Below are positions 7,854 to 51,564 of a stretch of DNA of 64,000 nucleotides, in pieces. Below the pieces are notes generated by a model that saw only the letters and a program-made list of their open reading frames with translations, was not told the origin of the DNA and ran no database searches. A program made the position numbers and the translations under genes. Origin of the DNA: a phage; sequence record PQ327946.1. One strand, given 5' to 3'. Each line of letters opens with the position of its first letter. Position 1 is the stretch's first letter.

Positions 7854-8780
7854 ATGTCAGGTTATAATGCACAAAACCCTAAAGAATTAAAGGACGTAAT
7901 ATTACGTCGTTTAGGCGCTCCTATTGTAAATGTTGAATTAACTACAGACCAAATTTATGATTGTATTTCACGAGCGTTAGAACTTTATGGCGAATACCAT
8001 TTTGACGGGTTGAATAAAGGTTTCCATGTATTTTTTGTTGATGACGAAGAAAAATACCGTCACGGCGTATTTGATATGCGCGGTTCTAACGTATTTGCTG
8101 TAACAAGAATTATAAGAACAAATGTTGGCTCTATTACTTCAATGGATGGTAATGCAACTTATCCATGGTTCACTGATTTCCTTTTAGGAATGGCAGGTGT
8201 TTCAGGTGGTATGGGTAGTAATTGTGGTAAATTCTACGGTCCGAACGCTTTTGGCGCTGACCTCGGGTATTATTCTCAATTAGTATCTTATATGGGTATG
8301 CTTCAAGATATGATTGCTCCTCTTCCAGATTTTTGGTTTAACTCTGCAAACGAGCAATTAAAAGTAATGGGTAACTTTAGACAGAAAGATGTCATTATCG
8401 TTGAATCGTATGTTCGCTCTTATATCGAGACCCATAAGATGGTAGGAAATACAGTAGGGTACGGACAGGTCGGTCCTCGTGATTCATGGTCTATTTCTGA
8501 ACGTTATGATAATCCAGACCATAATTTGGTCGGACGTCTAGTTGGTGAAGATCCTGCAACTAAACAAGGCGCATATAACAACCGCTGGGTTAAAGATTAT
8601 GCAACTGCATTAGCTAAAGAGCTTAACGGACAAATTCTTGCTAGACATCAAGGTATGATGTTACCTGGTGGCGTCACTGTTGATGGTGTTCGATTAATTG
8701 AAGAAGCTCGTTTAGAGAAAGAAGCTTTACGAGAAGAGTTATATTTACTGGACCCTCCTGCAGGTATTTTGGTAGGTTAA
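7854..8780 (+). CDS. 13: neck protein gp13
   Basis: 308 aa, T4 gp13 size and position. Confidence 0.9.
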
Positions 8781-8781
8781 T

Positions 8782-9417
8782 ATGGCAACATACTACAGAT
8801 TGTATATTACAACATTTGAAACATCCACCGGTATAAAGATTTATGGTGGTAAACACAAATCAGTTTACGAAGACCCTTCAAAAGACCCTTATACTGGGTC
8901 TGGCACCTTTATACGAAGGGCCAAAAGAAAATACGGTCCGTCTTGTATAAAAGAAATTATATGGTCTAAGCCATTTGAATCTAAAGCTCTAATGGATGAA
9001 GCTGAAGAGTTACTGGTAGATGAATTATCCATTTTAGAAAATTGCGCAAATCTTGTTAAAGGTGGTGCAGGCGGAAGGTCGTATATTAACCCAGAAGATA
9101 ATCCATCTATAGGACAAAAACGTTCAGCCCAATCTAAAAAGAAAATGTCTGACGCCGCAAAATCAAGAAAATGGACTGAAGAAGGGTTAAGAAAACGTAA
9201 AGAATCTACAGCAAGAATGTGGAAAGATTTCAAACATAGACATCCTGATTTTTCTGGTTCAAAAAATCCAGCAGCTCGAAAAGTTAGTGTAAATGGTAAA
9301 ATATTTAACACCTGCAAAGAATGTGGTGAAGAATTTAATATCACATCAAGCGCGGTTATAGGCCGATGCAAAAACAACAAACCTAAATGGGCAGGATGGA
9401 ATTATGTCGACGTATAA
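8782..9417 (+). CDS. seg-like GIY-YIG homing endonuclease (putative), inserted between genes 13 and 14
   Basis: N-terminal [21 protein letters not shown] (degenerate GIY-x10-YIG), shared D-x-Y-x-GSG...KYG motif with the two other seg-like ORFs in this window, basic K/R-rich C-terminal half; no counterpart at this position in T4. Confidence 0.6.
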
Positions 9418-10168
9418 TTCAAATTTATTTGCAAAGTTAGAAAACCGAGAAGGCTATTCTAAAACTAATGAAACCGAGATTTTAAACAAATACGTGAACT
9501 TCAACAAATACGAAAATAGCCAGACATTAGCCGATGTTCTAGTGGCAGAAAGCATACAGATGCGCGGTATTGAATGTTTTTATGTTCCACGTGAATATGT
9601 TGCCGTGGACCTTATCTTTGGTGAGGACCTTAAAAATAAATTTACTAAAGCATGGAAATTTGCTGCATATCTGAACTCTTTTGAAGGTTATGAAGGAGCG
9701 AAATCGTTCTTCAGCAACTTCGGAATGCAAGTTCAAGACGAAGTTACATTATCTATTAACCCAGGTCTTTTCAAACACCAGGTCAACAATCAGGAGCCCA
9801 AGGAAGGTGATTTAATATACTTCCCAATGGATAACAGTTTGTTTGAGATTAACTGGGTTGAACCATATGACCCATTCTATCAAGTAGGTAAAAATGCGAT
9901 TCGTAAAATTACTGCAGGCAAGTTTATTTACTCTGGCGAAGAAATCAATCCGGTGCTTCAGAAAAATGAAGGTATCAATATACCTGAATTTAGTGACTTG
10001 GAACTTAACCCTGTTAGAAATCTTGACGGTATCCATGACATTAATATCGATGAATATTCTGAAGTTGAGCAAATCAATTCAGAGGCAAGTGAATACGTTG
10101 AGCCGTATGTAGTAGTTAACAACCGTGGTAGACAAAATTCACCATTTGACGATGGGTTTATGAATTAA
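9404..10168 (+). CDS. 14: neck protein gp14
   Basis: 254 aa, T4 gp14 size and position. Confidence 0.88.
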
Positions 10169-19804: not shown

Positions 19805-21373
19805 ATGACTACTATCAAAACTAAAGCTCAGCTCGTAGACAAATGGAAAGAACTGCTGGAAGGTGAAGGCCTGCCGGAAATCGCTAATAGCAAGCAGGCT
19901 ATTATCGCTAAAATCTTCGAAAACCAGGAAAAAGATTTCGAAGTATCCCCTGAATATAAAGACGAGAAAATCGCTCAGGCATTTGGTTCTTTCTTGACCG
20001 AAGCTGAAATTGGTGGGGACCACGGTTATAATGCTCAGAACATCGCAGCAGGTCAAACCTCCGGTGCAGTAACCCAGATTGGGCCGGCAGTTATGGGTAT
20101 GGTTCGTCGTGCTATTCCTAATCTGATCGCTTTTGATATTTGTGGTGTTCAGCCTATGAACAGCCCTACCGGTCAGGTATTTGCTCTCCGTGCAGTATAT
20201 GGTAAAGACCCTATCGCTGCTGACGCTAAAGAAGCTTTCCATCCGATGTATGCTCCAGACGCGATGTTCTCTGGTCAGGGTGCTGCTAAGAAATTCCCAG
20301 CTCTGGCTGCTAGCACACAAACCGTTGTAGGTGATATCTATACTCACTTCTTCCAGGAAACTGGTACTGTGTATCTACAAGCTTCCGCTGTAGTAACAAT
20401 CGATGCTGGCGCTACCGATGCAGCTAAATTAGATGCTGAAATTAAGAAACAAATGGAAGCTGGTGTACTGGTAGAAATCGCTGAAGGTATGGCTACTTCT
20501 ATCGCTGAACTTCAGGAAGGTTTCAATGGTTCTACCGACAACCCGTGGAACGAAATGGGCTTCCGTATCGACAAACAAGTTATTGAAGCTAAATCTCGTC
20601 AGCTGAAAGCAGCTTACTCCATCGAATTGGCACAAGACCTCCGTGCAGTACACGGTATGGATGCTGATGCTGAACTGAGCGGTATTCTTGCTACTGAAAT
20701 TATGCTGGAAATCAACCGTGAAGTTGTTGACTGGATTAACTACTCCGCTCAGGTTGGTAAATCTGGTATGACTAATATCGTTGGTTCTAAAGCTGGTGTA
20801 TTTGACTTCCAGGACCCGATTGATATCCGTGGTGCTCGTTGGGCCGGTGAAAGCTTTAAAGCTCTGTTGTTCCAGATTGATAAAGAAGCAGTTGAAATTG
20901 CTCGTCAAACCGGTCGTGGTGAAGGTAACTTCATTATCGCTTCCCGTAACGTAGTTAACGTACTGGCTTCAGTTGATACTGGTATTTCTTACGCTGCACA
21001 GGGTCTGGCTTCTGGTTTTAATACCGACACTACTAAGTCTGTATTTGCCGGTGTACTTGGTGGTAAATACCGCGTATACATCGACCAGTATGCTAAACAG
21101 GATTACTTCACCGTTGGTTACAAAGGCGCTAACGAAATGGATGCAGGTATTTACTATGCTCCTTACGTTGCACTTACCCCACTGCGTGGTTCCGATCCTA
21201 AGAACTTCCAGCCGGTAATGGGCTTTAAAACTCGTTACGGTATCGGTGTTAACCCGTTTGCTGAAAGTTCCCTGCAGGCTCCAGGTGCTCGCATCCAGTC
21301 CGGTATGCCGTCTATCCTGAACAGCCTTGGTAAGAACGCTTACTTTAGACGCGTCTACGTTAAAGGAATTTAA
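19805..21373 (+). CDS. 23: major capsid protein gp23
   Basis: 522 aa; near-identical to T4 gp23 (…GLPEIANSKQAIIAKIFENQEKDF… to C-terminal NAYFRRVYVKGI). Confidence 0.98.
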   Translation: MTTIKTKAQLVDKWKELLEGEGLPEIANSKQAIIAKIFENQEKDFEVSPEYKDEKIAQAFGSFLTEAEIGGDHGYNAQNIAAGQTSGAVTQIGPAVMGMVRRAIPNLIAFDICGVQPMNSPTGQVFALRAVYGKDPIAADAKEAFHPMYAPDAMFSGQGAAKKFPALAASTQTVVGDIYTHFFQETGTVYLQASAVVTIDAGATDAAKLDAEIKKQMEAGVLVEIAEGMATSIAELQEGFNGSTDNPWNEMGFRIDKQVIEAKSRQLKAAYSIELAQDLRAVHGMDADAELSGILATEIMLEINREVVDWINYSAQVGKSGMTNIVGSKAGVFDFQDPIDIRGARWAGESFKALLFQIDKEAVEIARQTGRGEGNFIIASRNVVNVLASVDTGISYAAQGLASGFNTDTTKSVFAGVLGGKYRVYIDQYAKQDYFTVGYKGANEMDAGIYYAPYVALTPLRGSDPKNFQPVMGFKTRYGIGVNPFAESSLQAPGARIQSGMPSILNSLGKNAYFRRVYVKGI

Positions 21374-21430: not shown

Positions 21431-22090
21431 CTATAGCTTAAAACAATCATCGCGTTCATTAATCCAATTTCTTATAGTTTTTGCGGATACGTTAAAGAAT
21501 TCGGCAGCGTAATCGTAGTGGTTAAATTCATGACCTTTAATAGAAATATCCACAAATACAAATTTCTTACCTTTATTAGAATTCTTTCTAATTTTTGCTT
21601 TATGCTCTTCTGATAGTTTTCTACCTTTAAGATGAGAATCTCTATTTTTATAAAACTTTTTATTTGATATAGATTTGTTTTCTCGATGTTCTTTAGATTC
21701 TTTAGAACCTAATTTCTTTTTAGATATTTTGGCCCGAACTTCTTCAGTCATACCAGCTTTTGTCTTTTCGGATAACATCTCACGATACCCAGGTTCCTGT
21801 AAAGCTACTATAACAGGATTACCCTTGCCGCCTAAGGCGGCATTATAAGTATCTGTTCTCATGACAAAAGCCTCGTCAACTAGTTCGGCTTCCTTAGCAT
21901 ACATCTCTTCAGATGTTTCGAAATTGAAAAGGATTTCCTTTTTAAAATTCTCTAAGCCGTATTTCTTTATGGATTTTACTATGTTAACCCCGGAACCCAT
22001 ATAAGAATCGTTAACATCTGTAGTGGCATGGGCTCCAATATAAATCTTGTTATTAATGAGATTGGTTATTTTGTAAATTAAATAATTCAT
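21431..22090 (-). CDS. segD: seg-like GIY-YIG homing endonuclease (segD position)
   Basis: N-terminal YLIYKITNLINNKIYIGAH (GIY...YIG) plus DSYMGSG...KKYG motif; sits between genes 23 and 24 on the opposite strand, as T4 segD. Confidence 0.8.
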   Translation of the reverse strand: MNYLIYKITNLINNKIYIGAHATTDVNDSYMGSGVNIVKSIKKYGLENFKKEILFNFETSEEMYAKEAELVDEAFVMRTDTYNAALGGKGNPVIVALQEPGYREMLSEKTKAGMTEEVRAKISKKKLGSKESKEHRENKSISNKKFYKNRDSHLKGRKLSEEHKAKIRKNSNKGKKFVFVDISIKGHEFNHYDYAAEFFNVSAKTIRNWINERDDCFKL

Positions 22091-22463: not shown

Positions 22464-23747
22464 ATGAGTAAAATCCAAAAATTATTGCGTGAATCTACAA
22501 CGTCTATTAGCAACTCAATTGGTCGCCCAAATCTCGTTGCTTTGACTCGCGCTACGACTAAACTAATATATTCTGACATTGTAGCAACACAAAGAACTAA
22601 TCAACCTGTTGCTGCTTTTTATGGTATCAAATATCTTAACCCGGATAACGAATTCACATTTAAAACTGGTGCTACTTATGCTGGCGAAGTTGGATATGTA
22701 GACCGAGAAAAAATTACTGAGCTCACAGAAGAATCAAAAGTCACACTAAATAAAGGCGATTTTTTCAAATATAATAATATCGTCTATAAAGTGTTAGAAG
22801 ATACACCATTTGCAGATATTCAAGAAAGTGATCTAGAATTAGCTCTTCAGATTGCGGTCGTTCATTTAAAGGTACGGTTATTTTCAGATGCAGCGGTAAC
22901 AAGCAAATTTGAAAGCTCTGATAGCGAAATTTCTGATGCAAGATTCCAGATTAATAAATGGCAAACTTCGGTCAAATCTCGTAAACTTAAAACTGGACTC
23001 ACGGTTGAATTAGCGCAAGATTTGGAAGCGAATGGATTTGATGCCCCTAACTTCTTAGAAGATTTGCTTGCTACTGAAATGGCTGATGAAATTAATAAAG
23101 ATATTCTTCAGTCTTTAATTACTGTATCGAAACGTTATAAAGTTACTGGAATTACTGACACCGGATTTATTGACTTGAGCTATGCATCCGCTCCAGAAGC
23201 AGGTCGTTCATTATATCGAATGGTGTGTGAAATGGTATCACACATTCAAAAAGAGACAACTTATACTGCAACGTTTTGTGTAGCCTCAGCTCGTGCAGCT
23301 GCTATTCTTGCTGCTTCCGGTTGGTTGAAACATAAGCCAGAAGATGACAAGTATCTTTCACAAAATGCTTATGGATTCTTGGCAAATGGATTACCTCTTT
23401 ACTGCGATACCAACAGCCCGTTAGATTATGTTATTGTGGGTGTTGTAGAAAATATCGGTGAAAAAGAAATTGTAGGGTCCGTCTTTTATGCTCCATACAC
23501 TGAAGGAGTAGATTTAGATGACCCGGAACATGTTGGTGCATTTAAAGTTGTAGTTGATCCAGAAAGCTTGCAACCGTCTATCGGATTATTGGTTAGATAT
23601 GCTTTATCAGCAAATCCTTACACAGTAGCAAAAGATGAAAAAGAAGCGAGAATAATTGATGGCGGGGACATGGATAAAATGGCAGGACGTTCAGACTTGT
23701 CTGTTTTACTCGGTGTTAAATTGCCTAAAATTATCATTGATGAATAA
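22464..23747 (+). CDS. 24: capsid vertex protein gp24
   Basis: 427 aa, gp23 paralogue; T4 gp24 size and position; TATAAATA upstream. Confidence 0.93.
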   Translation: MSKIQKLLRESTTSISNSIGRPNLVALTRATTKLIYSDIVATQRTNQPVAAFYGIKYLNPDNEFTFKTGATYAGEVGYVDREKITELTEESKVTLNKGDFFKYNNIVYKVLEDTPFADIQESDLELALQIAVVHLKVRLFSDAAVTSKFESSDSEISDARFQINKWQTSVKSRKLKTGLTVELAQDLEANGFDAPNFLEDLLATEMADEINKDILQSLITVSKRYKVTGITDTGFIDLSYASAPEAGRSLYRMVCEMVSHIQKETTYTATFCVASARAAAILAASGWLKHKPEDDKYLSQNAYGFLANGLPLYCDTNSPLDYVIVGVVENIGEKEIVGSVFYAPYTEGVDLDDPEHVGAFKVVVDPESLQPSIGLLVRYALSANPYTVAKDEKEARIIDGGDMDKMAGRSDLSVLLGVKLPKIIIDE

Positions 23748-46688: not shown

Positions 46689-47259
46689 AAAAGTTTCGGA
46701 TTTGTTCCCAATTCAGAGAACGAAGATTATTACGAGAGTACTGAATTACTTCAATACCAGCTTGTTTAAGAATGTCTGCCCAATTTTCAGGAGATCGGTC
46801 ATATAATTCTGCATATACAACCTTTTTAATACCTGACTGTGTAATAGCTTTAGTGCAATCAGGACATGGAGAAAGTGTCGTATACAACGTAGCACCTTCA
46901 ATAGAATTACCTTTGCGAGCAGCAAACAAAATGGCATTCAATTCTGCATGGATTTCATTATTAGCAGACCATGCACTATGAGCGGCCCGATGTTCTTTAG
47001 CCAAAACAAAATTATCTGCCCGTCCAAATGATGTAGTGCCTTCTTTATGCCCAGCAACGATGACCGGGCTTGGTTTATTCTTCAACCAACCGTTTTCGGA
47101 TGCATGTTCACAACAGTTAACACCACCTGCAGGTGAACCATTATATCCGGTAGAAATAATGCGTCCATCTTTTTCAATGACGGCACCAACTTTCCATGAA
47201 CAACATTTTGATTCTTGAGAAATCAGATATGCAATCTGAAGGTATGTGCTAGCTTTCAT
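46678..47259 (-). CDS. cd: dCMP deaminase
   Basis: 193 aa; zinc-binding cytidine/dCMP deaminase motifs (CEHA...SPCPDC); matches T4 Cd. Confidence 0.95.
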   Translation of the reverse strand: MKASTYLQIAYLISQESKCCSWKVGAVIEKDGRIISTGYNGSPAGGVNCCEHASENGWLKNKPSPVIVAGHKEGTTSFGRADNFVLAKEHRAAHSAWSANNEIHAELNAILFAARKGNSIEGATLYTTLSPCPDCTKAITQSGIKKVVYAELYDRSPENWADILKQAGIEVIQYSRNNLRSLNWEQIRNFCGE

Positions 47260-48251
47260 TATTGAACCTTATTAATATAAGTTAACAGCTCTTTAGTTTG
47301 TTCCCAACTGATGCACGCATCGGTAATGGAAACGCCATAGGACATATTATCAGAAATTTTTTGATTTCCTTCATGTAGGAATGATTCTATCATAATTCCT
47401 TTGACCAAATCATTAGCTGCTAAATTTTTACCAATACCAATTTGATTGCTATAATGTCCAGCAGCGTTTGCATGGCTACAGTCAACCATTACATAATGAT
47501 TCAGACCTACTGCACTTGCTTTGTTAGAAGCTTCTTGAATATCAGAAGAATGATAGTTCGGGCCGTTGGTCCCGCCACGCAATACGATATGCGTATTCTG
47601 ATTACCTTCAGCTTCAACAATGCCTACAGTACCATCGACGTCCATACCCATATACCGATGAGGCCAGGCGGCACTATACATCGCGTCTGTAGCTACTTTA
47701 ATAGAACCATTGGTTGCGTTCTTGAAGCCTACGCACATCGGTAGACCTGAAGCAATTTCACGATGTGTCTGACTTTCAGTCGTACGGGCGCCAATAGCAA
47801 CCCATGAGAAAATACCAGAAAGATACTTAATCGTGAATGGGTCTAATACTTCAGTTGCTAATGGAAGTCCCATACGTAGAAGTTTACGACACAATGTTCG
47901 TGCAACTATAAGACCGTGGTTCATATCAAAACTTCCGTCAAGATATGGATCATTTACAAGACCTTTCCAACCTACGGTAGTTCGAGGCTTTTCAAAATAA
48001 ACGCGCATCACTAACAGAACATTAGGAAGACGAGTTTGAAGTTCAGCCAGACGTTTGCCGTATTCAACAGCAGCAATAGGGTCATGAATTGAACAAGGAC
48101 CTACAACAATAAGTTTGCGTGGGTCTTCACCGTTCATAATCGAATTAACTTGTTCGCGATGAGAAGCCACTTGTGATGCGTAAGCTTCCGACAAAGGAAT
48201 AATCTCAGCCAGTTCTTTTGGAGAAATAAGTTTTCTGATGACAGGTAACAT
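47259..48251 (-). CDS. 3-deoxy-7-phosphoheptulonate (DAHP) synthase, class I (AroG/AroF/AroH-like)
   Basis: 330 aa; LIVVGPCSIHDP, RVYFEKPRTTVGWKGLVNDP, IGARTTESQTHREIASGL, ITDACISWE all align with E. coli AroG; stop overlaps cd start (TAATG). Confidence 0.85.
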   Translation of the reverse strand: MLPVIRKLISPKELAEIIPLSEAYASQVASHREQVNSIMNGEDPRKLIVVGPCSIHDPIAAVEYGKRLAELQTRLPNVLLVMRVYFEKPRTTVGWKGLVNDPYLDGSFDMNHGLIVARTLCRKLLRMGLPLATEVLDPFTIKYLSGIFSWVAIGARTTESQTHREIASGLPMCVGFKNATNGSIKVATDAMYSAAWPHRYMGMDVDGTVGIVEAEGNQNTHIVLRGGTNGPNYHSSDIQEASNKASAVGLNHYVMVDCSHANAAGHYSNQIGIGKNLAANDLVKGIMIESFLHEGNQKISDNMSYGVSITDACISWEQTKELLTYINKVQ

Positions 48252-48668: not shown

Positions 48669-48944
48669 TTAAATTGCTTTGCATTCAATTTTTTGTGTAC
48701 CGAAATTGATATCACATTGGATAACTAAATCGCCGTCAAGATCAAATACCACTATGACGTGTGCAGACCCAGGGAGAAGAGTAATAGCAATAGAATCTAC
48801 TTGGTCTGGGAGCAAAGCATTGAGTACATGAGTTAGTTGAGCATGAACTCTGAGTTCGGCTGCATTATCAAGCACTTCAAACATATTATTAGCAATAATC
48901 TGACTGAAGACTACCTTTACAATTTCAGAATAAGTTGGGAACAT
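48669..48944 (-). CDS. hypothetical protein (91 aa)
   Basis: ORF in cd-pseT interval. Confidence 0.5.
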   Translation of the reverse strand: MFPTYSEIVKVVFSQIIANNMFEVLDNAAELRVHAQLTHVLNALLPDQVDSIAITLLPGSAHVIVVFDLDGDLVIQCDINFGTQKIECKAI

Positions 48945-48951
48945 AATTACC

Positions 48952-49176
48952 TCAGTGCACAGTATTTACTTTAACTCGAACAACAAATCGCTCGGTTGGT
49001 TCACCTACAGGAACAAACTCTACATGATATTCACCTTTGTAACGAGTATTCAGATCGTTACGAATTCCTGCGAGTTTGTTGATTAATGTAGGACTCATAT
49101 TAAGTCCCACTAGTTTACGAAGCATTTTGTATGCTTCATCTTCGATTTCATGATGTTTATCGTACATAGTTTTCAT
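48952..49176 (-). CDS. hypothetical protein (74 aa)
   Basis: ORF in cd-pseT interval. Confidence 0.5.
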   Translation of the reverse strand: MKTMYDKHHEIEDEAYKMLRKLVGLNMSPTLINKLAGIRNDLNTRYKGEYHVEFVPVGEPTERFVVRVKVNTVH

Positions 49177-49357
49177 TTAACCATTCAATTGCCTGGTCGA
49201 CGTTATCAAATATACTGCCGTCCAACCATTCTTCATGTTCATAGTCCAGCACATCAATACCGAACCGTCCATTTACTAAAGGCCATACGCAGAAGAAAAA
49301 GCATTTACGTTTTTCAATTTCTTCGATTGTACGAAAAATCTTTTCGATATTATTCAT
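49157..49357 (-). CDS. hypothetical protein (66 aa)
   Basis: ORF in cd-pseT interval, overlapping neighbours by a few codons. Confidence 0.45.
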   Translation of the reverse strand: MNNIEKIFRTIEEIEKRKCFFFCVWPLVNGRFGIDVLDYEHEEWLDGSIFDNVDQAIEWLNENYVR

Positions 49358-50072
49358 AGGTTTTCCATTTGCGGCCTAATTGCCAATCAGGATGGCTCAA
49401 TCTAGGGTCGTTTTCATCTGTTGTAGAAGATTTCTTACCTGAAATATGGATAAGCCATTTTCTGGATTTAGCTGCTTTAGAATAGTTTTCTTTTGCCTTA
49501 TCTGAACGAATCTTACCTTTATTCGCTTCGGATATTTTATTACCCCATTCTATAATAGCTTCTTCGCTCATAAAATCTTTTACATTTTTACCGTACATAG
49601 GATTATTTTCGCCTTCAAATGAATTACCATTTTTAAGACGACTTTCTTTAGATTTAATCCCATGCCCTGGTAATTTCTTGCCTTTAATCCATGGCACGGC
49701 ACCGTTTTTATATCTCTGTTTTTGTGTTTCTGAAATTTTTAATGAAGTTTCAGGGCTGGAATTAACATTAATACGGTTTTCATTGATATAATCCCAGCCT
49801 CCTTCTCCACCAGGTTTCAAATTATAATTAGTATCCAATTTTATAAATTCTTTAGTTACTAATTCGGCTTCTAAATCATATGCTTCTTGTTTAGTTTCAA
49901 ATATTTTTATGATTTCTTTATTAAAAGAATCTTTACCATATTTTGATTCGGCATTTTTAAAAGCTGTACCAGAACCTAAATAAGAATCATTTTCTTTTAA
50001 GGTCTTATGAACCCCTATATAAATTTTGTTGTTAACCAAACATGTGGTTTTATACACAGTGTACTTTTCCAT
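49350..50072 (-). CDS. seg-like GIY-YIG homing endonuclease
   Basis: Start moved to ATG (MEKYTVYKTTCLVNNKIYIGVHKT); GIY-YIG module plus DSYLGSG...KYG motif; TATAAATA late promoter 20 nt upstream; no seg gene at this position in T4. Confidence 0.75.
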   Translation of the reverse strand: MEKYTVYKTTCLVNNKIYIGVHKTLKENDSYLGSGTAFKNAESKYGKDSFNKEIIKIFETKQEAYDLEAELVTKEFIKLDTNYNLKPGGEGGWDYINENRINVNSSPETSLKISETQKQRYKNGAVPWIKGKKLPGHGIKSKESRLKNGNSFEGENNPMYGKNVKDFMSEEAIIEWGNKISEANKGKIRSDKAKENYSKAAKSRKWLIHISGKKSSTTDENDPRLSHPDWQLGRKWKTYE

Positions 50073-50091
50073 TAGAATCACCTCTATAGAT

Positions 50092-50099
50092 ATTTATAC
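50092..50099 (-). promoter_or_regulatory. late promoter (TATAAATA on minus strand) for seg-like endonuclease
   Basis: Minus strand reads GTATAAATATCTATAGAGGTGATTCTA-ATG. Confidence 0.6.
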
Positions 50100-50119
50100 T
50101 TAACTATGGAGATTTCTAA

Positions 50120-51206
<1,087 letters not shown>

Positions 51207-51207
<1 letters not shown>

Positions 51208-51506
51208 TATTTTATTCCTAAGAAAATTTCAAGAATACGAATGTTATGCTCGCGCCGGTCTTTATTAATTTCAGCAACGTTTTTATTAATTGACGTACTT
51301 CTAACGTTTGAAGAAATAAATTTAATCATATGACTTTTGAGTTGTTGCAAATCCAACCCTTTTTCTTTAGCAGCTTTACGAAGAGCTTTACCTGCTTCAT
51401 CTAGTGCCTTTGCTGCATCTTTGTCATAATTGCCGAGTGACATTCCACGACAGATATCAATATACTCATCAGACCGTTTGATGTAATTCTCTAGTAATGT
51501 TTTCAT
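51207..51506 (-). CDS. hypothetical protein (99 aa)
   Basis: ORF with early promoter (TATAAT) and SD GAGGAAAT upstream. Confidence 0.55.
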
Positions 51507-51534: not shown

Positions 51535-51564
51535 ATTATACTCTGCTCCTGAGAGTTTGTAAAC
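51535..51564 (-). promoter_or_regulatory. early promoter (GTTTACA-N17-TATAAT)
   Basis: Minus strand GTTTACAAACTCTCAGGAGCAGAGTATAAT; -10 flanked by inverted repeat AGGAGCA/TGCTCCT. Confidence 0.6.

Follow-up and report, generated by a model that had tools for sequence, protein, structure and literature searches.

A probable free-standing Seg-type homing endonuclease gene inserted between pseT and cd.4 in a Mosigvirus phage

The stretch analyzed here (hereafter the window) comprises 64,000 nt of phage DNA (PQ327946.1) from a Mosigvirus (RB69 group), the closest record being phage PNJ-9, with 98.3% identity over positions 48900-50500. On its minus strand, an open reading frame (ORF) of 240 aa at 49350..50072 (stop codon TAA, 49350..49352) forms a seg-like homing endonuclease gene, referred to below as seg. 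Enzymes of the Seg type make site-specific double-strand cuts in the gene-less allele, leaving 2-nt 3' overhangs, and their genes are preferentially inherited in mixed infections. The gene order along the minus strand is rnlA, alc, pseT.3, pseT.2, pseT.1, two small ORFs, pseT, seg, and an ortholog of cd.4, beyond which lie further cd-cluster ORFs, a DAHP synthase gene, and cd. The polynucleotide kinase/3'-phosphatase gene pseT (50120..51019, minus strand) is the upstream neighbor in every full-length homolog examined, and the cd.4 ortholog (49157..49357, minus strand) is the gene next to the insertion. In the interval from the pseT stop (50120) to the cd.4 start (49357), seg is free-standing and has a Shine-Dalgarno sequence and ATG of its own; at its 3' end it shares 8 nt with the start of cd.4. 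A group I intron or another RNA family at this locus was considered and rejected, given that no Rfam match was obtained within 48800-50600.

The program-made ORF list enters the gene as 49350..50081 on the minus strand, with a GTG start at 50081. An in-frame ATG (50072..50070) is located 8 nt past a GAGG (50084..50081), and because all orthologs begin at the aligned ATG (MEKYTVYKT...), the ATG at 50072 is the right start. An earlier note, made from the letters of this DNA, had proposed both this corrected ATG and a Seg-like GIY-YIG endonuclease, and both proposals are borne out, the second by matches to Pfam, PHROG 314, and (by Foldseek) I-TevI, and by 34% identity to T4 SegB.

The 240-aa product matches the Pfam families GIY-YIG (E = 6.4e-7; 30 bits, cutoff 22.6), SegE_GIY-YIG (5.9e-6), and NUMOD3 (7.2e-6), all exceeding the gathering scores, as well as PHROG 314, "homing endonuclease" (1.2e-43); TIGR01453, "group I intron endonuclease," matches below its cutoff. 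Two parts can be distinguished. The first is a GIY-YIG catalytic domain (aa 1-95; 49788..50072, minus strand), supported by invariant columns, a PDB profile search, and an AlphaFold2 model compared by Foldseek. The second, spanning aa ~125-240 (49353..49700, minus strand), contains the NUMOD3 match (aa 141-162) and ends in the motif WQxGRKWK, which is conserved in an alignment of 35 sequences; this region would be the site-specific DNA-binding part. Residues invariant among the 35 homologs are Y7, Y18, G20, H22, Y31, G33, S34, G35, F50, E68, Y83, N84, and GGxGG, and motif A of the GIY-YIG superfamily is present as TVY(7)-x10-IY(18)IG. When a profile of these homologs was searched against the PDB, the catalytic domain of I-TevI ranked first, weakly (E = 0.13), pairing Y7 with Y6, Y18 with Y17, E68 with E75, and N84 with N90, such that the catalytic Glu and Asn of I-TevI (E75, N90) are matched by invariant E68 and N84. 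The AlphaFold2 model has a mean predicted local distance difference test score (pLDDT) of 83.7, with aa 1-90 at 85-95, and its top three Foldseek matches in the PDB are all I-TevI structures (1MK0, 1LN0_B, and 1LN0_A; probability 1.00, template modeling score normalized to the target 0.63, 92-94 columns). The link to I-TevI was thus found through profile and fold searches, since a single-sequence PDB search returned only a match to eIF5 W2 (E = 0.17), which was rejected as spurious.

The gene is under purifying selection, with a pairwise ratio of nonsynonymous to synonymous substitution rates (dN/dS) of 0.08-0.10 against close orthologs and 0.06-0.25 overall, and all nine orthologs whose ORFs were read through have an intact frame. 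The protein therefore looks functional on comparative grounds, and seg is a real and probably active free-standing homing endonuclease gene.

The locus is occupied in few relatives. Occupancy was counted among 675 phage records matching a 1.6-kb query, with records covering at least 80% of the query taken as carriers; three of the 675 carry seg, namely the Mosigvirus phages PNJ-9 and WFbE185 and the Gaprivervirus phage P896. The other records among the matches listed align in two pieces spanning about 829 bp and thus lack the gene. Precise empty sites are present in TH58, RB69, and JS98, where the pseT stop overlaps the cd.4 start (TAATG) with zero spacer, so the spacer and the late promoter described below belong to the inserted cassette. 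In T4 the order is pseT, cd.5, cd.4, with cd.5, a 75-aa ORFan, occupying the slot of seg. The earlier note had placed the gene where T4 has no seg, had looked to T4, RB69, and JS98 for the empty site of the cd-pseT interval, and had named fixation in all relatives as an outcome that would count against it; the insertion, its absence from T4, and its patchy presence agree with that account.

The flanks of the insertion are mosaic. Measured against TH58, a Mosigvirus lacking seg, pseT and the region downstream of cd.4 in the window carry 0-2 mismatches per 30 nt, except in two tracts, taken to be the left and right co-conversion tracts. On the left, a candidate target region, the end of pseT (50120..50159, minus strand) differs over its last 40 nt from TH58 and over its last 28 nt from RB69. 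On the right, the first ~81 nt of the cd.4 ortholog (49277..49357, minus strand) are of Dhakavirus/Gaprivervirus type: mismatches to TH58 are confined to 49357..49286, and the tract has 1-2 mismatches to JS98 (Dhakavirus) and P896 (Gaprivervirus), whose genomes are otherwise ~30% divergent from the window, while cd.4 outside the tract is of Mosigvirus type. The gene itself is ~84% identical in DNA to the P896 copy, while the flanks differ by ~5-20 mismatches per 30 nt. In WFbE185, the right-hand crossover is different and shorter than in the window, and the two seg copies are separated by a synonymous divergence (dS) of 0.50, though their flanks are nearly identical. Co-conversion is read here from a population comparison of genomes, and such mosaic flanks are the pattern expected of double-strand-break repair with co-conversion. 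They place the unit transferred in the window at about 50159..49277, a putative cassette of ~880 bp, and suggest that seg entered Mosigvirus more than once.

Several features of T4 cd.5 bear on the history of this site. The gene (L005 5806..6033) ends in the same five codons as window seg (49350..49375), W-K-T-Y-E-stop, and the junction to cd.4 common to both reads ATGGAAAAC(T/C)TATGAATAA. Likeness to the seg-plus haplotype is also seen where T4 pseT ends (QVASGDF) and where its cd.4 begins (MNNLEKI...). A reading of cd.5 as a degenerate seg was rejected, as there is no homology beyond the last five codons and the junction (hhalign probability 0.12). From these matches, the 3' end of cd.5 is probably a short footprint of a lost seg.

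Outside the immediate relatives, orthologs of 61-76% identity directly follow pseT in Karamvirus Ent31, Gualtarvirus MP1, Klebsiella phage EI, and several metagenomic contigs, and PM2 and Providencia phages have matches as similar as that of MP1 among the listed homologs. Homologs of 44-48% identity likewise directly follow a pseT-like gene, including one in an Asteriusvirus jumbo phage and one that adjoins a stand-alone 152-aa HAD-PNKP gene in a non-T4 context. When the match was required to include the C-terminal region, all 15 fetched loci matching nearly the full-length protein lay 44-80 nt downstream of a pseT/PNKP-phosphatase gene (the EI copy being counted, in fragments). The 15 come from Mosigvirus, Gaprivervirus, Karamvirus, Gualtarvirus, Marfavirus, and Asteriusvirus as well as from metagenomic contigs. 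Among 77 IMG/VR loci whose matches are partial, mostly limited to the catalytic domain, not one is so placed (Fisher p = 1.5e-17). This is the modular pattern of GIY-YIG homing enzymes, a shared catalytic cassette with a site-specific DNA-binding tail, as judged from the distribution of matches, and the full-length linkage points to the pseT 3' end as the recognized site and lends indirect support to site-specific cleavage. A target on the downstream side is argued against, since the genes downstream of seg vary. Given that the foreign flanking tracts are only ~30-80 nt long, the cut would probably fall close to the insertion point.

The ortholog in Klebsiella phage EI (L007 2001..2720) is broken, appearing as four tblastn pieces and annotated as two short coding sequences, and retains an upstream TAATAAATA box and hairpin; as a decaying copy, it fits the decay stage of a homing cycle.

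T4 PseT and RnlA repair tRNA that has been cut by the PrrC anticodon nuclease. The strict association with pseT could be read in another way, as a nuclease kept mainly for the benefit of the phage, either by excluding the pseT alleles of competitors or by spreading and amplifying pseT as an RNA-repair (anti-defense) locus. The strong purifying selection and the persistence of the linkage across very distant phages, down to the stand-alone HAD-PNKP gene in its non-T4 context, are in keeping with this idea, as is the recent demonstration that anti-defense loci undergo segmental amplification involving SegB and tRNA genes, in which SegB drives the amplification (PMC13096335). However, seg is rare (the 3 of 675 flank-matching records given above, and 13 phage records with a homolog at at least 60% identity), it decays in EI, and no repeats or amplification are seen at the window locus. 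Linkage to a site is equally expected of a selfish site-specific element, and a benefit to the phage would be compatible with homing; as the main reason for the gene's maintenance, we consider it unlikely.

The 47-nt spacer between pseT and seg contains an exact T4-type late promoter core, TATAAATA (50091..50098, minus strand), in the loop of a predicted hairpin, 18 nt separating the box from the ATG; the earlier note had reported such a core about twenty nucleotides upstream of the ATG, and it is found at 50098..50091. The window contains 18 TATAAATA boxes (7.9 +/- 2.5 in shuffles), of which five in the 64 kb are on the minus strand, which carries early genes here. With only five minus-strand boxes, a chance occurrence in the 47-nt spacer is improbable (~0.003, a rough estimate). 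A late transcript of seg would start near 50085. Upstream, a strong sigma-70-type early promoter-like site (TTTACA-17-TATAAT; 51535..51563, minus strand) is predicted from its match to the consensus at 11 of 12 positions. A scan revealed no minus-strand terminator-like site between it and seg, so early transcripts starting there would read through pseT into seg.

The 5' arm of the hairpin, TTAGAAATCTCCATAG (50104..50119, minus strand), includes an anti-Shine-Dalgarno TCTCC (50108..50112), and the sequence TTAGAAATC(T/G/A)CC directly past the pseT stop is conserved in nearly all orthologs. The 3' arm, CTATAGAGGTGATTCTAA (50072..50089, minus strand), holds the Shine-Dalgarno GAGG (50081..50084) and extends as far as the A of the ATG. 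Folding of the spacer predicts a minimum free energy of -12.7 kcal/mol (z = -2.06), and in P896 an A-to-G change converts the single C.A mismatch of the hairpin to a C:G pair. The predicted late start lies 3' of the 5' arm, with TATAAATA in the loop. With the late RNA folded as starting 6 nt after the TATAAATA box (about 50085), the predicted unpaired probability of the start region (-15..+3) is 0.25 in a 110-nt read-through RNA vs. 0.54 in the late RNA, and the start regions of the orthologs behave alike in the two folds. Among 86 crudely defined genes in the window, that of seg is the sixth most buried (median 0.48).

This combination of promoter and hairpin is conserved. An exact TATAAATA box is present in nine distinct orthologous loci, in each case within the hairpin or adjoining it, with varying sequence around it; near-consensus boxes occur in Ent31, EI, P0014, and TH47 (AATAAATA) and in L022 (CATAAATA), and P0018 has none. 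Orthologs share one order of elements: the pseT stop, the 5' arm, the late box, a 3' arm holding the Shine-Dalgarno sequence or AUG, and the ATG. The stems themselves differ between lineages, with ATAG/CTAT and TAGTGCATATA/TATATGCACTA among them, ACAG/CTGT in P0009, ACAATT/AATTGT in P0007, AAGTCTCC/GGAGACTT in P0021, AAATACCTC/GAGGTATTT in Ent31, and CCTTATAAAT/ATTTATAAGG in MP1, and in TH47 and L022 the stems pair the AUG itself. All of these lineage-specific predicted stems occlude the Shine-Dalgarno sequence or the AUG. Each spacer was folded separately, so the support for the hairpin is comparative and descriptive, as distinct from a formal covariation score.

A hairpin with a late promoter is a published scheme for I-TevI, I-TevII, I-TevIII, segB, and Aeh1 mobE (PMC2988022; PMC2330249), in which only early/middle read-through RNA forms the hairpin, and late transcripts, having their start within it, can be translated (PMC2988022). 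The late-promoter core reported in the earlier note is borne out, while the hairpin around it, which would bury the ribosome-binding site (RBS), had been missed. The further statement that late expression is the means by which seg genes achieve marker exclusion was over-generalized: exclusion results from cleavage and gene conversion, and among the free-standing endonuclease genes of T4, seven are promoter-less, the endonuclease-specific promoters comprising five middle and two late ones (PMC2988022). Those seven genes also lend some weight to the possibility that the TATAAATA box is no working promoter and that seg is expressed only from early/middle read-through, kept low by the hairpin or by weak coupling to pseT; the very short predicted late leader and the orthologs with near-consensus boxes or, in P0018, none point the same way. 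This appears improbable to us, however, given the exact box in nine distinct orthologous loci, inside or abutting the hairpin despite varying surroundings, the rarity of minus-strand boxes (5 in 64 kb), and a geometry that is that of the validated I-TevI arrangement (PMC2988022).

Flanking the 47-nt spacer is a near-repeat of 12-13 nt, consisting of the pseT end, GGTGATTTTTAG (50120..50132), and the seg start, GGTGATTCTAATG (50070..50082), both read on the minus strand; the latter also resembles the empty-site junction of RB69, GGTGATTTTTAATG. The near-repeat could be due to chance, Gly-Asp-Phe-stop being similar to a Shine-Dalgarno sequence with its spacer; it could also be a relic of the origin of the spacer, or an operator-like mimic of the target. 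The seg product may bind a target-like sequence at its own promoter/start, where GGTGATTCTAATG resembles GGTGATTTTTAATG, and it may cut within ~40 bp of the insertion. If so, it would be an I-TevI-style autorepressor among the free-standing endonucleases. By analogy with SegB and tRNA genes, a seg beside pseT, a gene of tRNA-repair counter-defense, may also drive the spread or amplification of that gene. That the pseT-linked Seg clade is more than a selfish passenger, through such autorepression and/or by driving an anti-defense locus, is a speculative proposal with the odds well against it.

Overall, seg is best explained as a free-standing homing endonuclease gene of the GIY-YIG family and T-even Seg type, which a cassette of ~880 bp brought into Mosigvirus between pseT and cd.4; we assign this explanation a probability of about 0.78. 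During mixed infection, the enzyme would cut a co-infecting relative's seg-less allele at or close to the pseT 3' end, and recombinational repair from the seg-bearing genome would copy in seg along with short flanking tracts. The outcome would be intronless homing, seen genetically as local marker exclusion. Early transcripts from the pseT operon would read through the 47-nt spacer, whose hairpin would bury the Shine-Dalgarno sequence, while late transcripts would start near 50085 inside the hairpin, without the 5' arm. With TATAAATA in the loop and a transcript lacking the 5' arm, the late RNA would be translatable and expression thereby time-gated.

Several observations weigh against this explanation or parts of it. 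The z-score of the hairpin is modest by itself, and a MAFFT-based consensus fold of eight spacers yields only six pairs with one compensatory change, a result that is uninformative in that the 3' arms shift register between lineages. The predicted late 5' untranslated region is only ~13 nt, placing the Shine-Dalgarno sequence nearly at the 5' end, and the short flanking tracts could reflect trimming by later recombination. The pseT gene of seg-plus Ent31 ends in ...QVNHGDF, like that of seg-minus RB69; the last pseT codons were accordingly rejected as a marker of immune vs. sensitive alleles, being inconsistent across genera. The motif-B arginine of I-TevI (R27) is without an aligned counterpart: aa 1-95 include no invariant Arg, the KRWKRH of I-TevI is an insertion relative to the family in the profile alignment, and the family has in its place invariant H22 and Y31-x-G33-S34-G35. 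This deviation is probably a trait of the subfamily rather than a sign of inactivity, since active SegB, 34% identical, has the same motif set. In the literature, we found no experiment on the protein or any pseT-linked ortholog. That the ORF is instead an inactive remnant of an earlier invasion, its frame preserved by chance and without present function, is very unlikely: homing endonuclease genes do commonly degenerate after fixation, the EI copy is broken, and T4 seems to keep only a 3' footprint in cd.5, but the frame is intact in the nine orthologs read through, dN/dS is 0.08-0.25, all family-invariant residues are present, and the regulatory elements are conserved.

Two further Seg-like genes lie elsewhere in the window. 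The first (21431..22090, minus strand) encodes a 219-aa protein (PHROG 314, 5e-54) that is 50% identical to the pseT-linked protein over the catalytic domain. It lies antisense, flanked by the major head protein gene (19805..21373) and the gp24-like paralog of that gene (22464..23747), just as T4 segD lies antisense between genes 23 and 24; no TATAAATA is found directly upstream. The second (8782..9417, plus strand) encodes a 211-aa protein (PHROG 314, 2.6e-37) with matches to the I-TevI DNA-binding domain and NUMOD3 below the Pfam gathering scores, and lies on the same strand as its neighbors in the late region, between genes for a gp13-like adaptor (7854..8780) and a gp14-like head-closure protein (9404..10168). 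The entries covered from Table 1 of a review of T4 endonuclease genes include no seg at the gp13/gp14 site of T4 (PMC2988022). Orthology of the pseT-linked gene to SegD was rejected, as its best T4 match is segB and the window has a separate gene at the true segD position. GenBank nonetheless names the PNJ-9 (L001 3451..4173) and P896 (L003 3345..4064) copies "SegD homing endonuclease," a misnomer judging from these alignments and positions, and the WFbE185 copy "putative intron endonuclease," though the gene is not in an intron.

The surroundings of the locus are also variable. A full-length DAHP synthase gene of the aroFGH type (47259..48251, minus strand; TIGR00034, 2e-128) lies between cd and a cd.2-like ORF; it is also present in PNJ-9, WFbE185 (same position, annotated as hypothetical), Klebsiella phage EI, and a metagenomic contig, and is not present in RB69, T4, JS98, or P896. 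Since some relatives have it and others lack it, we consider it a variable auxiliary metabolic gene of the hypervariable cd cluster. At the EI locus, a MobE-like gene lies just past the DAHP synthase gene. Between pseT.1 and pseT, two small ORFs of 63 and 99 aa that match no family (51016..51506, minus strand) are positional counterparts of RB69 ORF230c and ORF231c and are absent from T4.

The gene family, the mode of mobility, and the regulatory scheme of seg are already known, and GenBank already labels the orthologs homing endonucleases, under wrong names. Literature searches returned no paper on a seg at the pseT/cd junction. The strict pseT linkage, the resolved co-conversion boundaries, the lineage-specific hairpins, and the probable cd.5 footprint in T4 appear to be new; these items are incremental and leave the understanding of homing endonucleases unchanged. 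They add a cleanly delimited Seg lineage with a new target neighborhood, the 3' end of a polynucleotide kinase/phosphatase gene, and the near-isogenic seg-plus (window, PNJ-9) and seg-minus (TH58, RB69) genomes, with co-conversion boundaries resolved to ~10 nt, are convenient natural material. The perfect association between the C-terminal region and pseT illustrates the rule of a catalytic cassette joined to a site-specific DNA-binding tail, and the hairpins that differ between lineages lend comparative support to the late-only translational gate described for I-TevI and mobE. The analysis also corrects the "SegD" and "intron endonuclease" annotations, and the insertion explains the local mosaic of pseT and cd.4 and probably how the 3' end of T4 cd.5 arose.

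Among known systems, SegB, a demonstrated endonuclease (PMC2330249), is the best-matching T4 paralog, at 34% identity over 239 aa (E = 3e-32). The two proteins share YxYK, KIYIGVH, DxYxGSG, KYGxxNF, E, YNLKxGGEGGWD, and a C-terminal WxxGRKxK, and segB is also free-standing and mobile with co-conversion, with an RBS-occluding hairpin likewise predicted (PMC2330249). The segB gene, however, resides in the tRNA cluster and targets tRNA genes, whereas the target here would be the pseT 3' end, and the C-terminal halves of the proteins diverge. No promoter has been mapped near segB (PMC2330249), which has only a predicted late one (PMC2988022), whereas an exact TATAAATA lies in the loop here. SegB has been characterized by experiment, and the present protein is known from sequence.

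I-TevI, encoded in the T4 td intron, provides the closest solved structure through its catalytic domain. It shares the modular build, in which the GIY-YIG domain is N-terminal and the DNA-binding region, bearing a NUMOD3-type motif, is C-terminal, and the expression logic, in which late transcripts lack the RBS-sequestering hairpin (PMC2988022). I-TevI cuts 23-25 nt from the insertion, and the short tracts at seg suggest a similar closeness. It differs in being intron-encoded, whereas seg is not in an intron and has no Rfam match; the similarity is barely detectable in sequence (profile E = 0.13), with R27 unmatched, and autorepression at an operator has been shown for I-TevI but is speculation for seg.

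T4 SegF, SegG, and SegE are likewise encoded by free-standing genes between conserved genes and cut the corresponding allele in a related phage, after which repair carries over the gene with flanking markers, resulting in localized marker exclusion (PMC2988022). Their cleavage sites are hundreds of bp or more away (PMC2988022), whereas the tracts here are ~30-80 nt, and segF and segG are promoter-less cassettes (PMC2988022), whereas seg has its own predicted late promoter. Lastly, mobE of the Aeromonas phage Aeh1 is likewise free-standing in an early/middle operon and combines a late promoter with an RBS-sequestering hairpin (PMC2988022), but it belongs to the HNH family and splits nrdA.

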